39,548 bases of DNA from an archaeon (lineage in GTDB: Archaea; EX4484-52; B79-G9): positions 1 through 39,548 of the forward strand of contig JBDRKP010000023.1 in NCBI GenBank assembly GCA_043813875.1. The letters run 5' to 3'. The notes under the pieces are model-generated. The model was not told where the DNA came from, ran no database searches, and saw nothing but the letters and a program-made list of their open reading frames with translations. The stretch's first letter is position 1. Every line of letters begins with the position of its first letter. A program made the translations under genes and the position numbers. Shown piece after piece: positions 1,624-27,399 of the stretch.

Positions 1624-1740
1624 TTTACCTTTTACAGGGTCATTTACAGGGTCATTTACAGGGTCATCCAGTACATAATAGCCAGTCTTCGGCGCCCCTA
1701 GGAACCGGATAATCTTCTTATCTTTTAGATTATTATTAAT
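1603..1740 (-). pseudogene. C-terminal winged-HTH remnant of a Fic/AlbA-HATPase-type protein
   Basis: Start-less frame INNNLKDKKIIRFLGAPKTGYYVLDDPVNDPVNDPVKGKVKDITL*; the LKxKxII..GxxKxGY wing and DPVN repeats are typical of such C-termini. Confidence 0.5.
1631..1666. repeat. 12-bp tandem repeat x3 (TTTACAGGGTCA)
   Basis: Three perfect copies; they encode DPVN repeats on the minus strand. Confidence 0.95.
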
Positions 1741-2992
1741 CATCTTTATCGAGGTCGTCACACAACAATTCAGGCATATTCAGGCTTTTTATTTCAGGTA
1801 ACGAAGAGCCTATAACTCCTTGCATACCTCCATACATTTTTGCAATGCCATAAAAAGCTTGCTCTATTTGTTTTTCTCTCTTAGACCATATTTTTGTCAT
1901 AGCTCTTTTCTCTTTTTGAAGGTCATTCATCATTTGAGCAAAAGCTTCACCTGTAGATTCCACTGTTTGTCTAAACTCTCTTCCGGTTATATAATTATAC
2001 AATAATTCCATTTTTTCATTCCTGCCAACATTAAAACTTTTGGTTCTTGCAATCTCAAATAGCTGGTTCCTTAATAATGTTGTTACAGGGATAATCGATT
2101 TGTAATGTATAATTATTATTCCTTCAACACAATCAAAATTAGAAATGCTCTCGGGAAGTGCTGTTGAAACTATGACCCCCATATCTGCTTTGGCTTCCCG
2201 TTGATCCTTTTTAAGTTTTGAAATCCAATTATTGTTCCATTTCTTTGCATTTTTGGATTCTATTAAAATAGTTCCACAAATTTTTCCAGAATTTGAACAT
2301 ACTTTTTGTAGAATATCTGCCCCACTGATACCAGAAGATATAGGTTCAATTTGGTCATAAATAAAATTTTCTTTTAAAACATACTCTAATTCCAGTTCGA
2401 GAACTTCACCCTGTAACTTTTGGGAGCCTTGCTCAGCTTTCATCTTCCACTCAGTAATTTGTTTTCTCAAATCGTCAATCTGTTTCTGCTTTTCTCTATC
2501 TTTCAATTCGTGTTCTTCGGATACATTTTTAACTGCATCCTCATAAAGTTTTGTCTTACTCTCATCCAATTTTCTCTCAATTTCAAGTTCAAAATTCCTC
2601 TTATCTTCTTCAAGCTTTCGCTGTTCTTTTCTTAGTTTAAGTTCCTCATTTTGAGACTTTTCTAACAGTTCATTTTTTTCATTGATCTGTTCCTGTAAAT
2701 CCTTTAGTTCTAACCCCATAGATTTGACTGCTTTCTTTTTTGCTTCCTTTTCTATTTCTTCTCTTTTTGACTCTAATGCATCTTCTATTTTCTCTGCGAA
2801 TGATTTTTTTAAATCATTTAACTGCTTATTTTTTCTATCTAGTTCAGAAGTGTATTTTTCTTCTGTTTTCTCCAACTCAGACTCAAACTCTCTACGTATC
2901 TTCTCTTCAATTGAATTGGTGAGAACTGTATCCAAAATTATATTTTTTTTACAATATGGACAAGTTATTTCCATTTTTTTCTGTTTTGGCAT
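1736..2992 (-). CDS. DUF2130-like coiled-coil protein with C-terminal PD-(D/E)xK-like domain
   Basis: N-terminal CPYC, long coiled coil, SQKLQGEVLELELE, GADILQ, ILIESK, WISKLKKDQR; SD AGGAGGT. Confidence 0.8.
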   Translation of the reverse strand: MPKQKKMEITCPYCKKNIILDTVLTNSIEEKIRREFESELEKTEEKYTSELDRKNKQLNDLKKSFAEKIEDALESKREEIEKEAKKKAVKSMGLELKDLQEQINEKNELLEKSQNEELKLRKEQRKLEEDKRNFELEIERKLDESKTKLYEDAVKNVSEEHELKDREKQKQIDDLRKQITEWKMKAEQGSQKLQGEVLELELEYVLKENFIYDQIEPISSGISGADILQKVCSNSGKICGTILIESKNAKKWNNNWISKLKKDQREAKADMGVIVSTALPESISNFDCVEGIIIIHYKSIIPVTTLLRNQLFEIARTKSFNVGRNEKMELLYNYITGREFRQTVESTGEAFAQMMNDLQKEKRAMTKIWSKREKQIEQAFYGIAKMYGGMQGVIGSSLPEIKSLNMPELLCDDLDKDD

Positions 2993-3031
2993 TTTAATAC
3001 CTCCTTATGTCCTAGTCTCTAGCGGAGTTAA

Positions 3032-5443
3032 TCACGCATTATTTGCTTCTATTGTGATTGTGTCGATAAGTGTTGGATAGAGGATCTTACAGGATCGTTT
3101 ATCATAGAAAATATAGTATGTGTGCGTAGACTCTATATTTTGTGTTGTGATAATAACGTACTCCTTATTTTCATTATCAACATCATACGCAGTATAATGG
3201 TATATGCCGTATTCGTTTCTCACAAACTCTTTTATTTTCAAAATTGAGGGATAATTATTATTGTCCATTAAAATTTGCAAGAAAACAGAAAGATTTTCTA
3301 GTAGTTTTTTAGTTTCTGTTTTATTACAGTTTTCCATTCTGCCATGTGCAAAATCGTTTCTGTATTTGACTATATCCTCAATTGTTTTGAATAAATCAAC
3401 TTTCTCTGAATCATAGTTGAATATTGTTTCTCTTTTGAAATAGTCTTTAAAACGGATATGAAATGCCTTGCTTTTGTTTAACAATTTAGAGAGTAAAGAT
3501 AAACAAAGACTACAATCACCTAAGCTTAGAAGCTTTTTTTGCATATTTTTTATTTTCGGATTAGCCAGAAATACATTTGAATTGAAATATAAATCAGAGA
3601 AGTCTTCATCTTTCTTAAGTTTTTCGAGAACAATAGATTCAATTTTATTCTTATAGAATTCTAAAATCAACTTTTTGGTAATATTATTTTTCGTTTTAAG
3701 ATGTTTTTTAAAGAAATTAAGAGTTTCATCGTCTATATCTTTTATTTCAATATTGTATTTTAATACATAGTGTTTTCTGAATAATTTCTCAAATTGCCAT
3801 GCTACTAGGAAGTTAATCTCTGAATCTCTATATATCTCATAATCCAGTTTCCAATCATCGCATATCGATTCATAACATATGTCGACCATACCGAATGTTC
3901 CATCTCCGGAATCATCGAATTGTGTGCTAATCGCTTGATAGAGAGGGTCAAAAAATAAAAAGTATAGCTTTTTTAATATTTTATCAAATGAATCAAGAAT
4001 GTCTTTAATCGTTGATTTTATTTCCTGTCCATATATCTCATTATCTTTCGCAATATTTGTCAATACATTCAATCTATACAAGTCTGATTTTTTAGTGGAA
4101 CCAACTGATGGGACAAAATGAAAGTATGCTAAATAGATTGACTTCAATAGCAACATGTCATCTTCGGTTACATCTTCCACATTAAAGAATCCCAAAATTT
4201 CCAGCATTTTCTTGAATTCATACTGTGAGATTGATTTCGGATAAAAAAACAATGGGTTTTTTGTAATGATATTGTATAGCTCTTCATCTTCAAGAGACTC
4301 TTTTAATCTTTTTGTTGGGATTTGTTTTTTAATAAAGCAATGATAGTTATTTATAGTATTAAATGAGCTACGTTCATCATGTGAAAAAATAAGAGGTCTA
4401 TTAGATGCTAAATCGAGAAATGTGTGGGTCTTAACAATGCCATAATTTGAGATGATTATGCGATCTTTTTCATTAATGTCATAGAATTCAAATCTGAGTG
4501 TGATTTGCTTTTTTTTCAATGAGTTATTCAAACAACTGATTAATATATTGTCATCAACACTAAGAAGGTACTGATTTAGCTTATATATTGTATCTGTTTT
4601 TTTGAATTTCTCTTGATAATAAATGATGTCTTTTTTTGGAAAGTTGAGCTTGTTAGAATCATTTAATTCGGCCAATATCTCTTTCATATTATCTTTGTTA
4701 ATTAATCCTGTACTTATTAGCTTTTCAGAGAAGAACACATCGTTTCTCAATTTTATTTTTTCAATACTTGAAATCAAAGGCAATATTCCCAAAGGACCTA
4801 ATACATATTTTTTGTTTTTTTTGTCGTTGTTTATTTCTATATTCTCAAGTCGCCAATGAGCAATATTATTGTTGTAATATTGATGGTTGATTACGCCCGG
4901 TTCAGACAAATTTTCAAATTCTTCGGAAGATAATACTCCTTGATTAGATTTAACATTTCCAATCTCTTGCCCCAATAACATTTCTTCACGAAAAGCAAAC
5001 TCAAAAATAAGGTTTTTGTCTGTGTTTTTTAACATATCTTCTATTTTCTTAGATTTACTGCGCTTTAGAATACTTCTTAACTTTTCTATGTTCTCTTTGT
5101 CCTGAAGAAGTTCATAATAAAATTGGGCTTTATGATAACTAATCACATTTATTTGAGATACTGGCTGAGGTAAAACAGATTCTATCCATTTGTTCTTTAT
5201 TTTGTTCTCTAAAATATCTAAGTATGTTGAAAAACCAGTACTTTCAAGTCTATTTAATCTCTTTTTAAATTCAACTTCATCAATTTCGAGAAATCGTAGT
5301 ATTTCCCAAAAATAGGCATTATTTATAATCTTTTTTTTGGTATTATTGTCGTACTTTTCCAATAATTCTACATTAAAAACATTTTTTCTTAATTGGTCTA
5401 AAAATATCTGAGCCGTTTCTGCAATATCGTTCATATTTATCAT
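3032..5443 (-). CDS. Large AT-rich hypothetical protein with C-terminal HEPN-like RxxxxH motif
   Basis: 803-aa ORF; LSLGD...IEDIVKYRNDFAHGR near the C-terminus; no other recognised domain. Confidence 0.55.
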   Translation of the reverse strand: MINMNDIAETAQIFLDQLRKNVFNVELLEKYDNNTKKKIINNAYFWEILRFLEIDEVEFKKRLNRLESTGFSTYLDILENKIKNKWIESVLPQPVSQINVISYHKAQFYYELLQDKENIEKLRSILKRSKSKKIEDMLKNTDKNLIFEFAFREEMLLGQEIGNVKSNQGVLSSEEFENLSEPGVINHQYYNNNIAHWRLENIEINNDKKNKKYVLGPLGILPLISSIEKIKLRNDVFFSEKLISTGLINKDNMKEILAELNDSNKLNFPKKDIIYYQEKFKKTDTIYKLNQYLLSVDDNILISCLNNSLKKKQITLRFEFYDINEKDRIIISNYGIVKTHTFLDLASNRPLIFSHDERSSFNTINNYHCFIKKQIPTKRLKESLEDEELYNIITKNPLFFYPKSISQYEFKKMLEILGFFNVEDVTEDDMLLLKSIYLAYFHFVPSVGSTKKSDLYRLNVLTNIAKDNEIYGQEIKSTIKDILDSFDKILKKLYFLFFDPLYQAISTQFDDSGDGTFGMVDICYESICDDWKLDYEIYRDSEINFLVAWQFEKLFRKHYVLKYNIEIKDIDDETLNFFKKHLKTKNNITKKLILEFYKNKIESIVLEKLKKDEDFSDLYFNSNVFLANPKIKNMQKKLLSLGDCSLCLSLLSKLLNKSKAFHIRFKDYFKRETIFNYDSEKVDLFKTIEDIVKYRNDFAHGRMENCNKTETKKLLENLSVFLQILMDNNNYPSILKIKEFVRNEYGIYHYTAYDVDNENKEYVIITTQNIESTHTYYIFYDKRSCKILYPTLIDTITIEANNA

Positions 5444-17771: not shown

Positions 17772-19175
17772 ATGCGCAAGACAAAAATCGTATGCACTAT
17801 AGGCCCTAAAACAGAATCCTTAGAGGCCTTGAAAAAACTCGCAAAAGCCGGCATGAACGTCGCCCGCCTGAACTTCTCCCACGGCACCTACGAGGAACAG
17901 GGAAAAAAAATCAAAAACTTAAAAGAACTGAACCAGCACCTAAAGAACCCGATTGCAATTCTCCTCGACACCAAGGGTCCTGAAATAAGAACCGGCGACC
18001 TCAAAAACGACATTTCCTTAAAAAAGGGCGACACATTCACATTCTCAGTAAAAGACACAACCGACATCGAAATGGGCACAACTCTTAGTTACAGGCAGAT
18101 AGTCGACCACATAAAAAAAGGCGACATGATCTATGTCGACGACGGCATGCTCGAATTCCAGGTAAAAGAGATTAACGGTCACAATATAATCTGTAAGGTA
18201 AAAAACGACGGCATCCTCTGCTCAAGAAAAGGTGTCAATGTCCCGGGGATAGAGGTCGACCTTCCCTCCCTGACCGAAAAAGACATAGAAGACATAAGCT
18301 TCGGCATACTCCATGATGTCGACTTCATAGCAGTCTCCTTTGTGAAACACAAAAACGACATCATCAAACTAAGAAAATTCCTGAAAGAAAAAGGTGCATC
18401 CACGCAGATAATTGCGAAAATCGAGCACATAAAGGCCGTTAATGATTTCAATGAGATACTGGAAGTATCAGACGGCATAATGGTCGCGCGCGGCGACCTT
18501 GGCCTTCAGATGCCGTTCGAAGAGATTCCGATGATCCAGAAAGAGATAATCGAAAAATGCAACGCTCTAGGAAAGCCGGTAATAACCGCAACCCACATGC
18601 TCAACTCAATGGTCGAGAACCCAAGACCGACCCGTGCGGAAGTCACCGACGTCGCGAACGCAATACTCTCCGGCACAGACGCCGTCATGCTATCGCAGGA
18701 GACAGCGAAAGGCAAATACCCTATAGAATCAGTAGAAGTCATGAGCAAGATATGTATAGCGACCGAAAGGAAGATGCCATCAAAAGTAAGTGCAACATTG
18801 GCCAAAAAGAGCGCAACCGACATCGTTGCACAGGCAGTTGCACTCATATCAGAAAACATCAGTTCAGACGCCATACTGACCTTCACCCAGACAGGCAAAA
18901 CCGCAAGCTCACTATCGAAATTCCGTGTAAAATCACCCATATATGCCCTCACGCCAGACGAAAAGATATTGAGGACAACATCCCTCATGTGGGGCGTCTT
19001 CGCGCACAAGATCGCTGCAGGATACAAATCAACAGACATCATGGTAAACGACGGCATAGAACAGCTGAAAGAAAAGGGATTATTGAAATCAGGCAACACC
19101 GTGATAATAACCGCCGGAACACAGATAGGCGTAAGCGGCACGACAAACCTCGCAGAAGTAAGAAAAATACACTAG
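17772..19175 (+). CDS. pyk: Pyruvate kinase
   Basis: RKTKIVCTIGP, RLNFSHG, LDTKGPEIRTG, AKIE, GIMVARGDLG, PRPTRAEVTDVANA. Confidence 0.98.
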   Translation: MRKTKIVCTIGPKTESLEALKKLAKAGMNVARLNFSHGTYEEQGKKIKNLKELNQHLKNPIAILLDTKGPEIRTGDLKNDISLKKGDTFTFSVKDTTDIEMGTTLSYRQIVDHIKKGDMIYVDDGMLEFQVKEINGHNIICKVKNDGILCSRKGVNVPGIEVDLPSLTEKDIEDISFGILHDVDFIAVSFVKHKNDIIKLRKFLKEKGASTQIIAKIEHIKAVNDFNEILEVSDGIMVARGDLGLQMPFEEIPMIQKEIIEKCNALGKPVITATHMLNSMVENPRPTRAEVTDVANAILSGTDAVMLSQETAKGKYPIESVEVMSKICIATERKMPSKVSATLAKKSATDIVAQAVALISENISSDAILTFTQTGKTASSLSKFRVKSPIYALTPDEKILRTTSLMWGVFAHKIAAGYKSTDIMVNDGIEQLKEKGLLKSGNTVIITAGTQIGVSGTTNLAEVRKIH

Positions 19176-19206
19176 ATTTATATTTCCCGCATCCCATCAA
19201 AATGAC

Positions 19207-20502
19207 ATGGGCAAAAAAACAAAACTAAACATCGGCTGCGGCATAATCTACCGGCCAGGCTACATAAACATAGACAAATATGAAGATTCTGTAGCAGACA
19301 TGACTCACGATGCAGACGACCTGCCATTTGAATCAAACACCATTGACACCATAGAAGCTCTTCATCTAATAGAGCATTTCGATTATATTCACTCAATTTA
19401 TGTTCTATCCGAATGGTTCCGAATATTAAAACCAGAAGGTACACTAACACTTGAAACACCCGACCTGAACAAATCATTCAAAAAACTCAAAAAAGAATCC
19501 CTAAAAAACCAGAAAACAACACTTCAGTGGCTCTATGGCATAGATTCATGCGGCATGCAGCACAAGACAATATTTACATTTGAATTACTAAAAAAACATC
19601 TGGAAGATATCGGTTTTCAAAACATAGTAAAAGAGCCGCAAAAAACACACAAATACGAACCTGGGCTGCGCATCATATGTAAAAAACCCATCAACTCGAG
19701 AAAAAAAGAGACATTCGCAACATTTCGCAAAAACCTCAAAAAACAACTAAAAATTGATGATTCCGACACTCTTTTAAGCCTTGAAAACCACTGTATCATC
19801 AAAATATCAGACCTATTCTTCAGCAACACTAATTTTAGCAAAAATGAATCCTTAATCAAACTGATCTCAAAATCAGCAATATGCAACCCGAAAATATCCC
19901 TCGTTCTCTGCAACACACTTCTTGAATCTGGTGAAATAACAAAAGAGGAATATGATTCAAAACTAAGTCCCCTAAACACACTAATAAATATGGAATTTCA
20001 CAAAAAGCTGTTCACACTTTGGTCCAAACACAAAAAGACCATTCAAAATACAGATTTGGATTACAGGACATTTATAGAAAATACAGAATCACGGTTGATT
20101 TCATTTATCAAAAACAGTGACATGGAGCAAGTAGTATATATTGATTCACAAAATCCGTCTGATATCGTTCTTTTCAATCGTCATGTAATCGAACTGCAAG
20201 CAAGAATATTATTCAATCGGGCCGTAAAACAGTTTTCAAAAAAAAATCATCACGAATCCCTAGAACTATTTAGGGGCTCAATAAAGCTCAACCCTCAGAA
20301 CCCCTTATCATACTGGAACATCGCAAGACTAGCCATGATTCTAGACCATCAAACAGAATCAATACTAGAGGGCTACGAAAATGCTCTACTCGCAATAAAA
20401 GACAAAAAAATCAAGAATCTAATCAAAAAAGAATTCGATCAATACACAACAAACAAAATTCAAATAATACCAAAAGAACCGATATCCGAAGATGTGCTAT
20501 AA
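19207..20502 (+). CDS. SAM-dependent methyltransferase (type 11-like) with C-terminal TPR-like repeat
   Basis: LNIGCG, GYINID, DLPFESNTID, HLIEHF, WFRILKPEG; C-terminal LFNRAVKQF...SIKLNPQNPLSYWNIA. Confidence 0.8.
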   Translation: MGKKTKLNIGCGIIYRPGYINIDKYEDSVADMTHDADDLPFESNTIDTIEALHLIEHFDYIHSIYVLSEWFRILKPEGTLTLETPDLNKSFKKLKKESLKNQKTTLQWLYGIDSCGMQHKTIFTFELLKKHLEDIGFQNIVKEPQKTHKYEPGLRIICKKPINSRKKETFATFRKNLKKQLKIDDSDTLLSLENHCIIKISDLFFSNTNFSKNESLIKLISKSAICNPKISLVLCNTLLESGEITKEEYDSKLSPLNTLINMEFHKKLFTLWSKHKKTIQNTDLDYRTFIENTESRLISFIKNSDMEQVVYIDSQNPSDIVLFNRHVIELQARILFNRAVKQFSKKNHHESLELFRGSIKLNPQNPLSYWNIARLAMILDHQTESILEGYENALLAIKDKKIKNLIKKEFDQYTTNKIQIIPKEPISEDVL

Positions 20503-20522
20503 TCTGTCAAATCAACCATGGA

Positions 20523-20534
20523 AATATATATATA
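20523..20534 (+). promoter_or_regulatory. TATA-box candidate for the paralog-rSAM operon (leaderless)
   Basis: AATATATATATA about 26-37 nt upstream of ATG 20560; no SD before that ATG. Confidence 0.5.
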
Positions 20535-20559
20535 CGTGATTCGTCATTAATTATAATCA

Positions 20560-20943
20560 ATGCGTACTGATAAACTTATTCGAATTGGCAGCAAATTGAA
20601 TATCTCATCTGAGGACATAAAAAACATCAAAAAAACCACGTTGATTTCAAACCTGAAATATTATATCGCCACAGCCGTAATCGCAATATTGACCTTCATT
20701 CTGGGGTTTTTTGCCGGAAGCGGCACATGCCCCGTCACATCCTCTATATCTTCTGGTTATCCTTTCGCAGGCGGTCTCACCGCTTTTGGAGCATCTGCTA
20801 GCCAAAAACGCACCACAAAAATCGCGGGAATAATACTGGTAGCAGCAGGTTTTTTTATTGCTCTGAAAACATCACCAATATTTGGCGAGGCTATAAAGTA
20901 TAATGTCTTCAGTAAATATAGACAAGGAGGTAATTCTCATTAA
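20560..20943 (+). CDS. Small membrane protein, paralog 1 (candidate rSAM substrate)
   Basis: KLIRIGSKLNISSEDIKNI; TM IAILTFILGFFAG; loop GTCPVTSSISSGYPFAGG; second TM; PIFGEAIKYNVFSK. Confidence 0.85.
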   Translation: MRTDKLIRIGSKLNISSEDIKNIKKTTLISNLKYYIATAVIAILTFILGFFAGSGTCPVTSSISSGYPFAGGLTAFGASASQKRTTKIAGIILVAAGFFIALKTSPIFGEAIKYNVFSKYRQGGNSH

Positions 20944-21316
20944 CGAAAAGATACTTCAGATAGGAAGCAAACTAAACATTTCAGCACAGGACATCAAAGA
21001 TATTCAAAATCACAATACTAAAAACAGTATATTATCTCCGATTACCGGCGGTATTATCGCAATATTATCCACAATACTGGGTTTTTTTATTGGAATGACC
21101 ACCGCAGGTTGTACAAACTGCAATGGCTACCCATTTGCATCAGCAGGTCTTGCATCAACTGCCCAAAAAACAGGCAGCAAAAAATATCTCACTCCTGCTG
21201 TAATAATAACAGCTTTAGTGTCAATAATGGGATTTGCAGTCGCTTATAGTGTAGCGCAAAATATGTTTGGTTATGGCATAATGTATGATGTTTACAAAAA
21301 GGAGGTCATAAGATGA
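20939..21316 (+). CDS. Small membrane protein, paralog 2; probable ATT start (alternative ATG 20903)
   Basis: (I)NEKILQIGSKLNISAQDIKDI; TM IAILSTILGFFIG; loop GCTNCNGYPFAS; MFGYGIMYDVYKK; SD GGAGGT at 20926-20931. Confidence 0.8.
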   Translation: MNEKILQIGSKLNISAQDIKDIQNHNTKNSILSPITGGIIAILSTILGFFIGMTTAGCTNCNGYPFASAGLASTAQKTGSKKYLTPAVIITALVSIMGFAVAYSVAQNMFGYGIMYDVYKKEVIR

Positions 21317-21666
21317 TGAATCAGAAACTACAGGAAATAGGAAACAAACTGGCTGTATCAGAGCATGACATAAAAACTATCCAAAAAACACATACATTAT
21401 CAAATATCAAATATTATATTACGGCAGTCATAATCGCAACACTCGCATTCATTCTCGGCTTTTTCGCAGGACAAGGCACATGTCCGGCATCGCCCGCGGG
21501 TTATCCTTTCGCAGGTGGTCTCACTGCTCTGGGCGCATCAGGCAGCCAAAAGCGCACCACAAAGCTCGCAGGACTTCTACTGGCAGCAATCGGCTTTTTC
21601 ATTGCACTCAAAACCACACCAATTTTCGGTCAGGCGATAGACTACAACGTCTACTCAAAAAAATAA
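21313..21666 (+). CDS. Small membrane protein, paralog 3
   Basis: MNQKLQEIGNKLAVSEHDIKTI; TM IATLAFILGFFAG; loop GTCPASPAGYPFAGG; PIFGQAIDYNVYSKK; SD GGAGGT and ATGA overlap with paralog 2. Confidence 0.85.
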   Translation: MMNQKLQEIGNKLAVSEHDIKTIQKTHTLSNIKYYITAVIIATLAFILGFFAGQGTCPASPAGYPFAGGLTALGASGSQKRTTKLAGLLLAAIGFFIALKTTPIFGQAIDYNVYSKK

Positions 21667-21678
21667 AAACAGATACTT

Positions 21679-22701
21679 ATGAGCTATAAACTCGAATGTG
21701 CCGTCTGGGAATTCACCCTTAAATGCAATCTCCGCTGCTCTCACTGCGGCTCAAGCGCAGGCACAGCAAGGCCAGACGAACTAACCACCAAGGAATGTAT
21801 CAAGCTCTGCGAAGACCTTGCCGAACTCGGATGCAGTGACGTATCCCTTATGGGCGGCGAACCCTTTCTAAGAGATGACTGGACACAGATAGCCCAATGC
21901 ATAACGGATTTAGGCATGAATTTAAACTTTGTCTCAAACGGTCTCCTGATTGACAAATATATAGACGACATCGCAAAACACAACCCAAAAGTGATCGGCA
22001 TAAGCTTAGATGGCACAGAAAAGACACATGATCGCATAAGAGGTAAAATAGGCGCATACAAAAAAGCAATTGACTCGATAGACATGCTCATCGACCGTGG
22101 CATTCAGACAACCGCAATCACAACAGTAAGCAAGATGAACTTTGATGAATTGCACGCTATCAAAGACGTCGTCTACAAAAAAGGATGCAACTGGCAGATT
22201 CAGGTCGCAATGCCATTCGGCAATTTTGATAAAAAATATCTGATAACCAAAGAAGAATACTATGCTGTAGCATTATTCATAGCATCGCAAAGAATAAAAA
22301 CAAGCTTTGACGACCTGCCCGTAATAGGAGCGCACTGCTTCGGATATCACTCAAAGATACTTCCTGGCTGTCATGGCTGGAAAGGATGTACCGCAGGTAT
22401 GAAAAGCATAGGCATAACAAGTGACGGCGGAATACTCGGATGCCTCTCAATGGGCAACAATTGCTTTATAGAAGGAAACATAAAAGACACACCGCTAAAA
22501 CAGATATGGCAGGATCCAGACGCATTCGGATACAACCGGAAATTCAAAAAAACAGACTTTGGTTCCAACTGCAAAGACTGCAAGCATGGCACCATCTGCA
22601 AAGGGGGGTGCAATTCCGTATCACAGACAATTACAAAACAGTTCCACAACAACCCATACTGTTTCTACGCAATAGAAAAAGACATAATAAAAATCAGGTA
22701 A
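21679..22701 (+). CDS. Radical SAM protein with SPASM domain (peptide/protein maturase-like)
   Basis: CNLRCSHC (CX3CX2C), MGGEP, ISLDG; SPASM GCTAG...GC...CKDCKHGTICKGGC (CX2CX5CX3C)...PYC. Confidence 0.93.
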   Translation: MSYKLECAVWEFTLKCNLRCSHCGSSAGTARPDELTTKECIKLCEDLAELGCSDVSLMGGEPFLRDDWTQIAQCITDLGMNLNFVSNGLLIDKYIDDIAKHNPKVIGISLDGTEKTHDRIRGKIGAYKKAIDSIDMLIDRGIQTTAITTVSKMNFDELHAIKDVVYKKGCNWQIQVAMPFGNFDKKYLITKEEYYAVALFIASQRIKTSFDDLPVIGAHCFGYHSKILPGCHGWKGCTAGMKSIGITSDGGILGCLSMGNNCFIEGNIKDTPLKQIWQDPDAFGYNRKFKKTDFGSNCKDCKHGTICKGGCNSVSQTITKQFHNNPYCFYAIEKDIIKIR

Positions 22702-24127: not shown

Positions 24128-25654
24128 ATGATTTACATCACCACATCCCCCCTCGGTCTCTTTGCGACAGATGAAAAAGGAAACGAAGTCGCATGCATGC
24201 TCTTTTCAAAAGACCCTAAGATCGCAAAAAAGCAATACTCAGATTCACTGAAAAAAGAACTCTTCAAAGAAGAAAATGAACTGATAGGCAAACTCAAAAC
24301 CAGTGATTTGATTTTCGAGATAAAAAAAGACGCATATAAACACATATTCCCTAATCCCGCAGGCATTTATGTGCGAAGCAATCTTCTGCGCCTCGCACAA
24401 AAAAATAGCTTCAAGCCAGCCGAATTCAATCGGTTCTTGTATGACATCAACTTCGAGATCACAGCAGACGCCATGCGCAACCAGCGCACAGACGACAAGC
24501 TCATAATCCAGGCCGTGACCGCCATAGACGACCTTGACAAGGCCATAAACGTCATGTGCATGCGCCTGCGCGAATGGTACGGCCTCTACTTCCCCGAAGC
24601 CAGCGAGAGGATAAGCGACAACGAAAAGTTCGCAAAATACATCTCCGAGACACTCTACAGGACAGACATAAACAACATCAGCATCGAAGATACCGTCGGC
24701 TCGGAAATGAAATCCGATGACTTGAAGGAGCAGAAGATGTTCGCGCAATCAATCGAAAACCTCTTTGCTGAGCGCAAGGAACTCGAGAAGTACATCAACA
24801 GGAAGTGCTTGGAAGTCATCCCCAACATGACCGCGATAATCGGTGCAGAGCAGGCATCACGCATCTTGGCGCACGCAGGCAGCACAGAAAAGCTCGCCAA
24901 ATTCCCCTCATCGACGATACAGATACTCGGCGCAGAAAAAGCCCTCTTCCGCTACCTTCACAACGTCGGCACAAGCCCCAAGCACGGCATAATCTTCAAC
25001 ACCGGCTACATCCAGCGCACCCCGAAAGATTACAGGGGAAAGATTGCCCGTATCCTTGCAAGCAAACTGTCGCTCGCATCAAAACTCGATTTCTACAAAG
25101 GCGTATTCAGAGGCGACAGTCTGAGAGCTGACATGGACAAAGCCCTGGAAGAGGTACTCAAAGCAAAGCCCAAAAAAGACAGGTCACAGAGAATCCAGGC
25201 TCAAGGGCGATTTCAGGAAAAAAAGCAGTCAGGACAAGATACAGGCTTAAAGAAAGATAGCCGTCCTCCGTTCCAGCAGCCATCTAAAAATAAAGACCGC
25301 AACTCAAAAGTTTATGCAAGAGCTCAATATTCAACACCAGGAAGACAATCTCAACCCTCCCAAGGCCGCTACAAAGAACCTCAGCCGGGATTCCCGACAA
25401 GACAATCGCCTGCAAGATCTCAATATTCAACCCCTGTAAGACAATCTCAACCATCCCAGGACCGATACAAAGAGAATCATGCTGGTTTCCCTGCGAGACA
25501 ATCACCCGCAAGAGCTCAATATCCAACACCCGGAAGACAATCTCAACCCTCCCAAGGCCGCTACAAAGAACCTCAGCCGGGTTCCCAGGACAGACCAAAG
25601 CGCAATGAAGATCCATTCAGGAGATTCAAGAAAAAGAAGCACAAGAGAAGATAA
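24128..25654 (+). CDS. nop5: C/D box RNP subunit Nop5 (aNop56) with long repeat-containing C-terminal tail
   Basis: RLREWYGLYFPE, PSSTIQILGAEKALF, SPKHGIIF, RGKIARILASK. Confidence 0.95.
   Translation: MIYITTSPLGLFATDEKGNEVACMLFSKDPKIAKKQYSDSLKKELFKEENELIGKLKTSDLIFEIKKDAYKHIFPNPAGIYVRSNLLRLAQKNSFKPAEFNRFLYDINFEITADAMRNQRTDDKLIIQAVTAIDDLDKAINVMCMRLREWYGLYFPEASERISDNEKFAKYISETLYRTDINNISIEDTVGSEMKSDDLKEQKMFAQSIENLFAERKELEKYINRKCLEVIPNMTAIIGAEQASRILAHAGSTEKLAKFPSSTIQILGAEKALFRYLHNVGTSPKHGIIFNTGYIQRTPKDYRGKIARILASKLSLASKLDFYKGVFRGDSLRADMDKALEEVLKAKPKKDRSQRIQAQGRFQEKKQSGQDTGLKKDSRPPFQQPSKNKDRNSKVYARAQYSTPGRQSQPSQGRYKEPQPGFPTRQSPARSQYSTPVRQSQPSQDRYKENHAGFPARQSPARAQYPTPGRQSQPSQGRYKEPQPGSQDRPKRNEDPFRRFKKKKHKRR
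25316..25582 (+). repeat. 96-bp (32-aa) coding tandem repeat, about 2.8 copies, in nop5
   Basis: Units start at 25316, 25412 and 25508: ARAQYSTPGRQSQPSQGRYKEPQPGFPTRQSP and variants. Confidence 0.95.
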
Positions 25655-25759
25655 TATCAATTTCTCCTTATTATTTCTATCGGCATGATATACGGATTAT
25701 CTATATATAACTAAAACCCTCAAAAGAAATTGAAATTAAAATTCGTTGAGGCGTATAAA

Positions 25760-26688
25760 ATGGATTCAAAGGATGCATTGGTTGTTTTTCAGGGTAATAA
25801 GATAAGAAGGATATGGCACGAATCAGAGTGGTATTTTTCTGTAGTTGATATTGTTGCTGTCTTGACTGATAGCGCAAATCCAAATAATTACTGGAAAGTT
25901 CTAAAGCATAGAGAATCTCAGTTGGTTACAATTTGTAACCAACTCAAATTACCGTCAGCAGATGGTAAATATTATGGTACTGATTGTGTAAATACTAGAA
26001 ATGCTTTTCGCCTTATCCAGTCAATCCCCTCAAAAAAAGCAGAGCCCTTCAAGCAGTGGCTGGCAAAAGTAGGCTATGAAAGGGTACAGGAAATAGAGAA
26101 CCCCGAACTTGCGCAAGCAAGGATGAAACAGATATATGAACAAAAAGGATACTCAAAAGGCTGGATCGAAAAAAGGCTAAGAGGAATCGCAGTACGGCAG
26201 GAACTGACAGAAGAGTGGAAAACAAGAGGCGTAAACAGCAGTATAGAATTTGCGATACTGACAAACGAGATATCAAAGGCGACCTTCGGAAAGACAGTTG
26301 AAGAGTACAAACAACACAAGAGCCTGAAAAAAGAAAACCTGCGCGACCATTTTCAAGGTTTAATCAGCTGCGATGCATAACGAACCTTGAAAAGCTTGAA
26401 ACTCACAAAAGTGTAAAGAAGTTTCATGACATGACCGATCTTGAACTCATATTCTCAATGTTGGGGGAAGCATCGACAACAAAAATAGCACGAAACAAAG
26501 ATGCTCGCGGTTTTGAAGAGAACAGATACGCAGCCAACGAAGGCGGAACAGTAGCAGGAATCGCAAGAAAAGAACTGGAAAAAAGAATCGGCGAGGAGAT
26601 TGTTACAGATGAAAATTACCTGGAAGAACCAGAGAAAGTAAAACGGCTTGGAAAACAATCAGACACAAGCGATATTGATAAAAAATAA
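25760..26688 (+). pseudogene. BRO-N-domain (phage antirepressor-like) gene interrupted by an 80-nt insertion
   Basis: IRRIWH..EWYFSVVDIV, RLIQSIPSKKAEPFKQWLA...ENLRDH continues naturally as MTDLELIFSMLGEAST in another frame at 26431. Confidence 0.8.
26351..26430. mobile_element. Small double-hairpin insertion (REP/MITE-like or intron-like)
   Basis: Stem 1 TTTTCAAGGTT (26350-60) / AACCTTGAAAA (26383-93); stem 2 TGAAACT (26397-403) / AGTTTCA (26420-26). Confidence 0.6.
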
Positions 26689-26748: not shown

Positions 26749-27399
26749 ATGTCAGACAATAACATACACCGGATTGGCCGCGAATATGCGACATTAAGCA
26801 TAGCGCCCAAAAAGAAAGTCTACGACGAAAAGATAATCCGTCGCGGAAAAGACGAATTCCGTATCTGGGACCCGACGAAATCAAAACTGGGCGCAGCCCT
26901 TGAAAAAGGCCTCAAAAACACCCCATTCTTCAAAGGGATGAAGATACTCTACCTTGGCGCAGCCAACGGCACGACGCCATCCCACATATCAGACATCGTA
27001 ACCGAGACCGGCCTCCTATACTCCGTAGAATTCTCGCCCCGCTCGATGCGCGACCTCATCTCCGTCTCACGCTCACGCAAAAACATAATACCTATCCTTG
27101 CCGACGCAAGGATGCCAGACACCTACGCAAACAGGCTGGAGCAAGTAGACCTCATATACTGCGACGTGGCCCAGCCCGACCAGACAGAGATACTATTAAG
27201 GAACGCTGAAATATTCCTGAAGAAAGGCGGCTACATAATGATCGCCATAAAAGCGCGCAGCATAAACGTCGTAAGAAACCCCAAAGAGATATACGCAGAA
27301 GAAAGGGAAAAACTAAAAAAAGGCTTCGACATCCTCGAGGAAATCAACCTCCACCCACTCGAAAAAGACCATGCATTCTTCGTCGCAAAACAGAGATGA
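26749..27399 (+). CDS. flpA: Fibrillarin-like rRNA/tRNA 2'-O-methyltransferase
   Basis: RIWDPTKSKLGAA, LYLGAANGTTPSHISD, VEFSPR, DVAQPDQ, IKARSI. Confidence 0.97.
   Translation: MSDNNIHRIGREYATLSIAPKKKVYDEKIIRRGKDEFRIWDPTKSKLGAALEKGLKNTPFFKGMKILYLGAANGTTPSHISDIVTETGLLYSVEFSPRSMRDLISVSRSRKNIIPILADARMPDTYANRLEQVDLIYCDVAQPDQTEILLRNAEIFLKKGGYIMIAIKARSINVVRNPKEIYAEEREKLKKGFDILEEINLHPLEKDHAFFVAKQR

Follow-up and report, generated by a model that had tools for sequence, protein, structure and literature searches.

A widespread archaeal radical SAM/SPASM cassette, with an obligate methyltransferase partner, predicted to act on small membrane proteins

A cassette of five genes is described here from a 39,548-nt stretch of archaeal DNA (the whole stretch being referred to as the window), in which it encodes a class I S-adenosylmethionine (SAM) methyltransferase with a helical-repeat domain, three small membrane proteins (A, B and C) and a radical SAM/SPASM enzyme. 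The known targets of radical SAM/SPASM maturases are soluble peptides of the leader-core type. Judging from sequence relations, conserved gene linkage and a predicted complex, the cassette appears to be a new, widespread variant of radical SAM/SPASM peptide maturation that is aimed at small membrane proteins and comes with an obligate methyltransferase. It is probable on balance that the enzyme and the methyltransferase together modify a conserved tyrosine in the tail of the three small proteins, and we place somewhat more trust in the narrower claim that these proteins are the substrates of the enzyme. A first-pass annotation of the same DNA had proposed tandem membrane paralogs as radical SAM/SPASM substrates, in one unit with a methyltransferase, and this proposal finds support in linkage, clustering and co-folding.

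Organization of the cassette

Five open reading frames (ORFs), all on the plus strand, fill positions 19207-22701 of the window in the order methyltransferase, A, B, C, radical SAM/SPASM enzyme (Table 1). Gene B, whose ATG at 20903 is its sole standard start codon, overlaps gene A by 41 nt; B and C share a 4-nt overlap, and 12 nt separate the end of C from the start of the enzyme gene. The coupling of the three small genes and the 12-nt spacing noted in the first-pass annotation are thus confirmed by the ORF coordinates. The same coordinates, together with the Pfam assignments of the flanking genes pyk (PF00224) on one side and rps17e (PF00833) on the other, uphold its description of a compact co-oriented unit between these two genes.

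Table 1. Coordinates of the cassette genes and candidate promoters in the window
Feature	Position	Strand	Description and basis
Class I SAM methyltransferase with all-helical TPR-like domain	19207..20502	+	431 aa; Pfam PF13489/PF08241, AlphaFold2 (AF2) model
Small membrane protein A	20560..20943	+	127 aa; amphipathic helix at the N-terminus, then two hydrophobic helices; G-Y-P in the loop and Y114-N-V-F in the tail
Small membrane protein B (divergent paralog)	20903..21316	+	137 aa; loop G-Y-P, tail Y128-D-V-Y
Small membrane protein C	21313..21666	+	117 aa; loop Y64-P65 and tail Y111-N-V-Y114, both disordered (AF2, alignments)
Radical SAM/SPASM enzyme	21679..22701	+	340 aa; Pfam, NCBIfam ranking, tree, co-fold
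Candidate promoter, A+T-rich TATA-like run	19177..19185	+	22 nt 5' of the methyltransferase ATG, 2 nt past the pyk stop; read by eye
Candidate internal promoter, A+T-rich TATA-like run	20522..20535	+	25 nt 5' of the first small gene; read by eye

Conservation and linkage

The components of the cassette travel together. In a profile survey of 401 archaeal genomes, the enzyme clade is found in 7 genomes, all of which also carry the methyltransferase. The latter occurs near full length in 8 genomes, among 12 matches at E <=1e-20 of which the other four cover the methyltransferase domain only, and these eight are the seven enzyme genomes and G003, whose contig ends inside a small gene. Thus, in the genomes searched, the methyltransferase is an obligate partner gene of the radical SAM enzyme. 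The small family is detected by profile in 6 of the 401 genomes; G276 and G333 have the enzyme and no small-profile match, yet divergent small genes adjoin their enzyme, and small genes adjoin the enzyme in all seven enzyme-bearing genomes. The co-occurrence of the small family with the enzyme clade and the methyltransferase, which the first-pass annotation had put forward as a check, is borne out, as a neighbouring enzyme is kept in 6 of 6 assessable small-family genomes (G000, G004, G005, G073, G163, L020).

The number of small genes per cassette varies from 1 to 5. In G005 the order is pyk, methyltransferase, five small genes, enzyme and rps17e; in G004 methyltransferase, one small gene, enzyme and rps17e, the opposite side being without pyk; and in G003 pyk, methyltransferase, small gene and contig end. 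In a metagenome-assembled genome (MAG) labelled Aenigmatarchaeota, the methyltransferase is followed by two small genes and the enzyme, with unrelated genes around them, and the gene set recurs in two other archaeal genomes beyond the genus and this MAG. Among the 42 genomes of the phylum that were covered, the small family was found in this genus only, in 4 of its 8 genomes including that of the window.

A metagenome search with the enzyme returned 54 loci, 49 of which were tabulated while 5, at 23-31% identity, were dropped. The enzyme is at least 58% identical in 30 of the 49, and 1 kb or more of sequence upstream is available for 19 of these 30. In 17 of the 19 loci the enzyme is directly preceded on the same strand by one to three small-family genes, and in 16 the methyltransferase is upstream; the two loci without small genes so placed are L036, in which the methyltransferase abuts the enzyme, and L039, in which the small gene lies on the opposite strand. 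In three short metagenome loci the methyltransferase is downstream of the enzyme. A weak 26-residue match is found in a bacterial MAG (L021). Beside the methyltransferase-enzyme pair of L036, on the opposite strand (2597-2998, minus strand), a 133-aa ORF holds I-Y-P-K-G-L-W-A-S-N-V-K-L-E-D-L, a motif resembling the sister-clade core described below with the second Tyr replaced by Trp.

Within the genus, the cassette is present or absent at one defined site. In G001, G002 and G006 pyk and rps17e abut, with a dozen or two bases from the pyk stop to the rps17e stop, while in G000 and G005 the 3.5-kb cassette occupies exactly the pyk-rps17e spacer; no direct repeats were seen at the cassette borders in the alignment of occupied and empty sites. 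A homolog search with the enzyme gave 880 matches at E <=1e-20 among 2118 candidates, and among the matches listed with labels (the best 120) those at 57-70% identity carry the labels Thermoplasmatota, Asgard lineages and Chloroflexi. Taken with the presence/absence pattern, these labels fit an accessory cassette that spreads horizontally, and the cassette is most likely a self-contained, horizontally mobile protein-modification unit.

The radical SAM/SPASM enzyme and its relatives

The enzyme matches Radical_SAM (PF04055, E 1e-24) and SPASM (PF13186, E 3e-8) in Pfam, and its cysteines C16/C20/C23, C220, C237, C255, C298, C301, C307, C311 and C328 are invariant in 68 homologs. The assignment as a CX3CX2C plus SPASM enzyme is therefore sound, and the protein has both the radical SAM motif and the full SPASM cysteine set that mark a splicease-type enzyme. 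With CX3CX2C at residues 16-23, it is without an N-terminal recognition domain.

Among NCBIfam families, TIGR04103 (nif11-class peptide maturase 3), which we take to be the counterpart of InterPro IPR026482 and thus the PlpX family, ranks first with 227.6 bits (cut-off 725; E 2e-67, profile positions 3-344 of 412). It is followed by TIGR03913 (GDL-motif peptide maturase; 198.3 bits, cut-off 591.75) and then by TIGR04133 (144.0, cut-off 425), AhbD (134.7, cut-off 500), MftC of mycofactocin (130.4, cut-off 265), AhbC (128.8, cut-off 650) and NirJ (126.1, cut-off 515.45). The likeness to GDL-motif maturases that had been suggested in the first-pass annotation holds in so far as TIGR03913 is the second-best curated family, but it is TIGR04103 that scores first. 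A passage of the review PMC11002830 places the splicease PlpX in IPR026482. By sequence, the solved relatives of the enzyme are only SkfB, PqqE, SuiB and CteB (E 4.5e-22 to 4.6e-7).

A tree of 41 rows was built by a quick IQ-TREE search with SH-aLRT support only. It comprises 3 rows of the genus, 27 of the 54 metagenome loci with full-length ORFs plus 2 second copies, and 9 named bacterial proteins, the annotated bacterial members being taken from plasmid records and including one annotated TIGR04103 member. The archaeal cassette enzymes form one clade of 32 rows (SH-aLRT 99), with halves of 17 rows, including that of the window, and 15 rows (the sister clade). Only at a deeper node (support 95) does this clade join an Agathobacter enzyme, the Nostoc TIGR04103/GDL group (itself with support 99) and a long-branch TIGR04133 row, while MftC, TIGR04053 and NirJ stand apart from the archaeal clade and the Agathobacter/TIGR04103/TIGR03913 group. 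Both the NCBIfam scores and the tree cluster the enzyme with peptide maturases rather than with cofactor enzymes: the curated scores of AhbC/AhbD and NirJ are missed, and NirJ falls outside the maturase group. In terms of sequence relations, the enzyme falls within the splicease/GDL superclade and outside both curated families.

The small membrane proteins and their tyrosine motifs

Proteins A and B are 67% and 38% identical to C in pairwise alignment, and a search of their own genome with C retrieves A (E 6e-47) and B (E 6e-17) and no further copies in 1.64 Mb, so that the three tandem proteins are indeed paralogs, as had been suggested. Each contains two hydrophobic 19-residue windows (Kyte-Doolittle means 1.8-2.2). 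None of the three has a Pfam or NCBIfam match above threshold, hence no DUF1843 match, and a look-up of C in the ESM Atlas gave unnamed clusters only (best score 0.78), with generic membrane hairpins as structural neighbours. The AF2 model of C, made from 100 sequences (12 close homologs and 88 of 148 representatives), has a mean predicted local distance difference test (pLDDT) of 73.9, with helices at 4-12, 17-55 and 83-101, a disordered loop at 56-82 and a disordered tail at 102-117.

A profile search for the small family yielded 204 cluster representatives at E <=1e-3 and 85 at <=1e-10, and 133 of 148 representatives (length 95-165) were aligned. Across these 133, the N-terminal helix has the consensus K-L-x-E-I-G-x-K-L-x-V-S-x-x-D-I, the first hydrophobic helix is Gly-rich and kept family-wide, and two tyrosine motifs stand out, both within segments that are disordered in the model of C. 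In the loop Y-P, Tyr is present in 128 and Pro in 126 of the 133. The tail Tyr is found in 114 of the 115 representatives reaching that column; it is followed by G (67 of 115) or N (30 of 115) at +1, by Val at +2 (106 of 115) and by an aromatic residue (Y/F) at +3. The tails of A, B and C carry Y-N, Y-D and Y-N, and the five tails of the G005 cassette have N, G, G, G and N at +1; since this single cassette holds both kinds, one enzyme evidently serves Y-G and Y-N tails. A Cys-based (sactipeptide/ranthipeptide) chemistry, allowed for in the first-pass annotation, was considered and rejected as unlikely: the loop Cys is missing in some paralogs and lies outside the conserved columns, whereas the two tyrosines are conserved.

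In a homolog from G163 (L090, G163:C51, 1121-1546, minus strand), a run of about 20 Thr, with two Ile within it, directly precedes the loop G-Y-P. Poly-Thr runs are typical of extracellular linkers, and the run hints that the loop is extracellular or glycosylated. If the loop is outside, the N-terminal helix and the tail would be cytoplasmic, which would fit the co-fold described below, the topology being a putative one.

The family features bear on whether the cassette is a classical pathway for a RiPP (a peptide made on the ribosome and modified after translation), in which the modified C-terminal piece would be cut off and released by an episymbiont as a bioactive peptide, such as a protease inhibitor or an antimicrobial. 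The N-terminal helix, which resembles a leader, the variable paralogs in tandem and the modification enzyme would suit such a pathway, and spliceotides are protease inhibitors according to an excerpt of PMC11626197. The tail past the last helix, however, is only about 16 residues long, and the family-wide conservation of the hydrophobic helices argues that the membrane-bound form is the product. Moreover, in none of the loci inspected is the cassette accompanied by a gene for a protease, an exporter or immunity, and with neither a protease nor an exporter gene the cassette gives no sign of a cleaved, exported peptide product. Release of a peptide is thus highly improbable.

Substrate pattern in sister and bacterial loci

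The sister archaeal cassettes (L051, L055, L058, G333) resemble that of the window in having both tyrosine motifs, a methyltransferase/helical-repeat gene homologous to its own and an enzyme from the same clade, at 45-51% identity. They differ in that the two motifs are adjacent and often repeated, while in the window type a hydrophobic helix lies between them, and in that the gene order is often enzyme, peptides, methyltransferase. Their adjacent genes encode soluble or one-helix peptides, most of which have the same kind of N-terminal helix. The peptides of L058 and L051 are soluble and contain one to four repeats of Y-[P/K]-x-x-x-Y-G-T-[I/V]-S, the four-repeat L051 peptide being without the helix, while L055 and G333 encode one-helix proteins ending Y-P-x-G-x-L-Y-[S/G]-S-I-S-x-K-D-F. 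The +2 residue of the sister-clade cores is mostly Thr or Ser. The archaeal cassette type can be delimited by three parts: an enzyme falling in the 32-row clade, a homologous methyltransferase/helical-repeat gene, and neighbouring small genes whose products combine an N-terminal helix with Y-P and a C-terminal Y-x-[V/T]. The cassette of the window has all three. Two paralogous radical SAM genes per cassette are seen in L058 (3310-6026) and L050 (2291-6011), flanking two of the three peptide genes in L058.

Among the bacterial relatives, the Agathobacter enzyme adjoins a 35-aa peptide ending M-Y-G-T-G-V-R-M, and the Nostoc enzyme, annotated as nif11-class maturase 3, adjoins a Nif11 precursor ending L-Y-G-L-P-P-E-L-F.

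Because the sister cores repeat without any membrane part, the small proteins would be substrates and not anchors. It might be argued instead that they are membrane anchors or regulatory subunits of an enzyme-methyltransferase pair that modifies a lipid or another membrane component. The small proteins are integral to the membrane, the cassette is without a protease or exporter, archaeal radical SAM enzymes modifying tetraether lipids exist according to literature excerpts, and docking of an N-terminal helix would also suit an anchor. Nevertheless, soluble sister peptides with up to four tyrosine-core repeats and no membrane helix follow a substrate pattern, and the copy number of 1 to 5 per cassette, the grouping of the enzyme with peptide maturases and the placement of the tail at barrel residues in the co-fold likewise speak against an anchor, a role that we regard as very unlikely.

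Predicted docking of the enzyme and protein C

Co-folding of the enzyme with protein C, the test suggested in the first-pass annotation, passes its controls: the score is 0.88 (runs 0.88, 0.90 and 0.88), as against 0.06 for the best of three controls. Among 80 solved complexes 58 reach the mark used, as do 2 among 110 mismatched pairs, a calibration that is only rough here as custom alignments were used (68 rows for the enzyme, from the best 120 homologs, and 99 rows for protein C). The runs share at least 69% of contacts, with a partner pLDDT of at least 59. Confident contacts link residues 3-34 of protein C to residues 155-159, 192-207 and 336-339 of the enzyme, the most confident pairs being those of residues 5-23 with 192-203, 158 and 337, and the interface residues E192, Y195, A198, F200, I201 and R205 are conserved in the homolog alignment. 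The contact list also pairs residues 103-104, 106 and 113-116 of the tail with residues 83, 104-107, 143-147, 171-173 and 214-232 of the enzyme, many of them invariant and read, in the model, as the barrel interior.

The predicted docking of the N-terminal helix would mirror leader-helix binding in the spliceases, as far as an excerpt of PMC11414181 (Richter et al.) describes it with the help of AlphaFold: a helix of the leader or of the Y protein binds and activates the splicease, and the X-Y-G site enters the active centre.

The methyltransferase/helical-repeat protein

The methyltransferase domain covers approximately residues 1-160 (PF13489, PF08241) and is followed by an all-helical domain at about 165-415 with weak TPR-like matches; the methyltransferase-TPR gene reported directly upstream of the small genes is therefore correctly placed, with a clear class I methyltransferase domain and weak TPR-like matches. 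The AF2 model (pLDDT 93.9) consists of a Rossmann-type beta/alpha domain and then 13 helices, and a Foldseek search against the PDB retrieved generic class I methyltransferases only, with no specific match to the helical domain. An alignment of 24 homologs, 5 of them from genome loci and 19 from metagenome loci, shows no variation at the SAM-motif residues G10, G12 and D23, and the protein is homologous across both halves of the enzyme clade.

Proposed mechanism and its alternatives

From the computed gene linkage, family relations and predicted docking we infer the identity of the substrates, the modified site, the chemistry and the role of the methyltransferase. The enzyme would recognise each small protein via its conserved N-terminal amphipathic helix, docked on the enzyme helix 192-207, and the flexible C-terminal tail would enter the enzyme barrel, where radical chemistry would take place on the near-invariant tail tyrosine (Y-[G/N/D]-V-[Y/F]; Tyr111 in C). 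The methyltransferase/helical-repeat protein would act second, most likely by methylating either the modified tail or the loop Y-P tyrosine motif, and its helical domain may hold the substrate. The products would remain in the membrane as modified small proteins and not as released peptides.

Tyramine splicing is the loss of C8H9NO (135.06 Da), which leaves an alpha-keto-beta-amino residue. Since TIGR04103, the best-scoring family, is linked to tyramine spliceases, backbone splicing at the tyrosine that leaves such a residue is favoured over any other single chemistry; it is nevertheless less likely than not even if the small proteins are the substrates, and unlikely when taken overall. The same substrates may instead undergo another reaction, in which the tyrosine is cross-linked or modified on its side chain and the methyltransferase caps the product, with no backbone splicing. 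Examples would be C-H functionalisation, a bond between two Tyr residues, or a three-residue cyclophane that joins Tyr to the beta-branched residue at +2 (Y-x-V, Y-x-T). The variable +1 residue, at which Gly is apparently unneeded, suits such chemistry, and so do the near-constant Val at +2, the Thr/Ser in most sister-clade cores and the aromatic residue at +3; the enzyme lies outside the curated splicease family, and the SPASM cross-linking maturases WgkB, StsB and DynA match it at E 1e-22 to 1e-34. Against it, the cross-linking families score about half of TIGR04103, and the nearest bacterial relatives adjoin X-Y-G peptides, the splicing motif according to excerpts of PMC11414181 and PMC11626197. 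Non-splicing chemistry is an outside possibility of some weight.

Several points weigh against modification, and in particular splicing, of the tail tyrosine. Tyr111 is absent from the confident co-fold contacts, the partner pLDDT is about 60 and the calibration rough, and the loop Y-P makes no enzyme contact in the co-fold, yet is at least as conserved as the tail Tyr. With a hydrophobic helix between them, the two motifs may lie on opposite sides of the membrane, and a radical SAM enzyme reaches the cytoplasmic side only, or must act before insertion. The enzyme stays under the curated cut-offs of both nearest families and in the tree forms a separate clade, not nested among annotated TIGR04103 members. 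The window tails, Y-N and Y-D, do not match the splice motif; the splicease sites in the excerpts of PMC11414181 and PMC11626197 all have the form X-Y-G, among which a D-Y-G site escaped processing (PMC11626197). Nothing in the spliceotide systems, as far as these excerpts describe them, corresponds to the methyltransferase, whose target in the cassette is conjectural.

A bolder version of the splicing reading can be formulated, unlikely as it is at present: the archaeal enzyme would excise a tyramine unit at Tyr-Asn/Asp and Tyr-Gly sites of the small membrane proteins, within their cytoplasmic tails. A reactive alpha-ketoamide would thereby be formed, a group that the methyltransferase would then fix or tune.

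Comparison with known systems

The closest parallel is provided by the spliceotide systems (type I PlpX/PcpX with PlpY; binary RhaX/RcsX/RasX; excerpts of PMC11414181 and PMC11626197), in which a radical SAM/SPASM gene likewise stands beside ribosomal substrates, often tandem paralogs, with a tyrosine-centred core motif near the substrate C-terminus. In addition, TIGR04103 is the best curated family, and its Nostoc member is near the archaeal clade in the tree. In contrast to these systems, the cassette has a shorter enzyme (340 aa vs 420 aa in Nostoc), no PlpY-like gene and an obligate methyltransferase/helical-repeat partner; its predicted substrates are two-helix membrane proteins, not Nif11/NHLP peptides, and the site is Y-N or Y-D.

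The GDL-motif (DUF1843) maturases of TIGR03913 (Azospirillum, Aureibacter) resemble the cassette in their tandem small substrates upstream of the enzyme and, in Aureibacter, in a class I methyltransferase that follows the enzyme. GDL-motif peptides also have an x-Y-[G/A] motif, but near the N-terminus, at the opposite end to the cassette's tyrosine motif; the cassette's small proteins lack a DUF1843 match, and the Aureibacter methyltransferase is without detectable similarity to that of the cassette. The Aureibacter plasmid locus (L079, 1150-3920) contains three tandem DUF1843 peptides starting x-Y-[A/G], a GDL-type radical SAM enzyme and the class I methyltransferase.

SkfB, PqqE, SuiB and CteB are distant relatives of the cassette enzyme that also act on ribosomal peptides. 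They carry an N-terminal peptide-recognition domain, for which the cassette enzyme, with CX3CX2C starting at residue 16, has no room, and they form thioether or C-C bonds at other residues.

No publication on this archaeal cassette turned up in literature searches that did not extend to the splicease survey of Scott et al. 2022 (Chem 8:2659). That survey is cited in an excerpt of PMC11626197, along with graspetide surveys, for thousands of biosynthetic gene clusters in bacterial and archaeal genomes, and according to an excerpt of PMC10849128 the 2022 splicease survey counted PlpX-like enzymes in 189 bacterial genera.

Genomic setting

The source genome is a MAG of 1.64 Mb in 90 contigs, 91.5% complete. 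Its closest public relatives are labelled Candidatus Nanohalarchaeota and one farther relative Aenigmatarchaeota, labels that place the archaeon in DPANN. The G+C content is 0.36-0.38 over 19001-21000, as against 0.46 immediately upstream. A promoter/terminator scan of the window found sites no more frequent than in shuffles, the consensus used being bacterial and not applicable to archaea; Rfam and tRNA scans of the window gave zero matches. A search of sequencing runs with the 3.5-kb stretch gave three matches, all of them groundwater DNA (word shares 0.47, 0.17 and 0.07) and none RNA.

Other parts of the window deserve a mention. Nop5/Nop56 and fibrillarin genes are usually neighbours in archaea. 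Here, between Nop5/Nop56 (24128-25654) and fibrillarin (26749-27399), positions 25730-26688 hold a Bro-N gene (PF02498, E 4.5e-12; 216 aa) together with an ORF of 85 aa that has no family, a stretch that looks like a small mobile or viral-type insertion. The Nop5/Nop56 homolog has a long low-complexity C-terminal tail (about residues 345-508) with approximately three repeats of a Q/S/P/R-rich unit. At 1736-5443, on the minus strand, G+C falls to 0.29-0.31 against about 0.42 for the window; this stretch, which encodes a DUF2130 protein (418 aa) and an 803-aa ORF without a Pfam match, is probably acquired DNA.

Implications

The system lends itself to direct testing, as it consists of five genes with an enzyme of 340 residues, and a soluble substrate could be made by fusing the predicted recognition helix to the tail. 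Were splicing the reaction, the cassette would provide a natural enzyme accepting Tyr-Asn/Asp sites, of use in protein engineering. Should the bolder version hold, it would mark three firsts for spliceases, namely action on membrane proteins, relaxed +1 specificity and occurrence in archaea, and it would give small-genome episymbionts a membrane-anchored covalent warhead, for instance against host or viral proteases. More broadly, the cassette links a maturase superclade with integral membrane proteins as well as with a methyltransferase that is inseparable from it, the whole unit probably moving between archaeal phyla, and if the tail tyrosine is edited it would represent a new kind of post-translational modification of archaeal membrane proteins.

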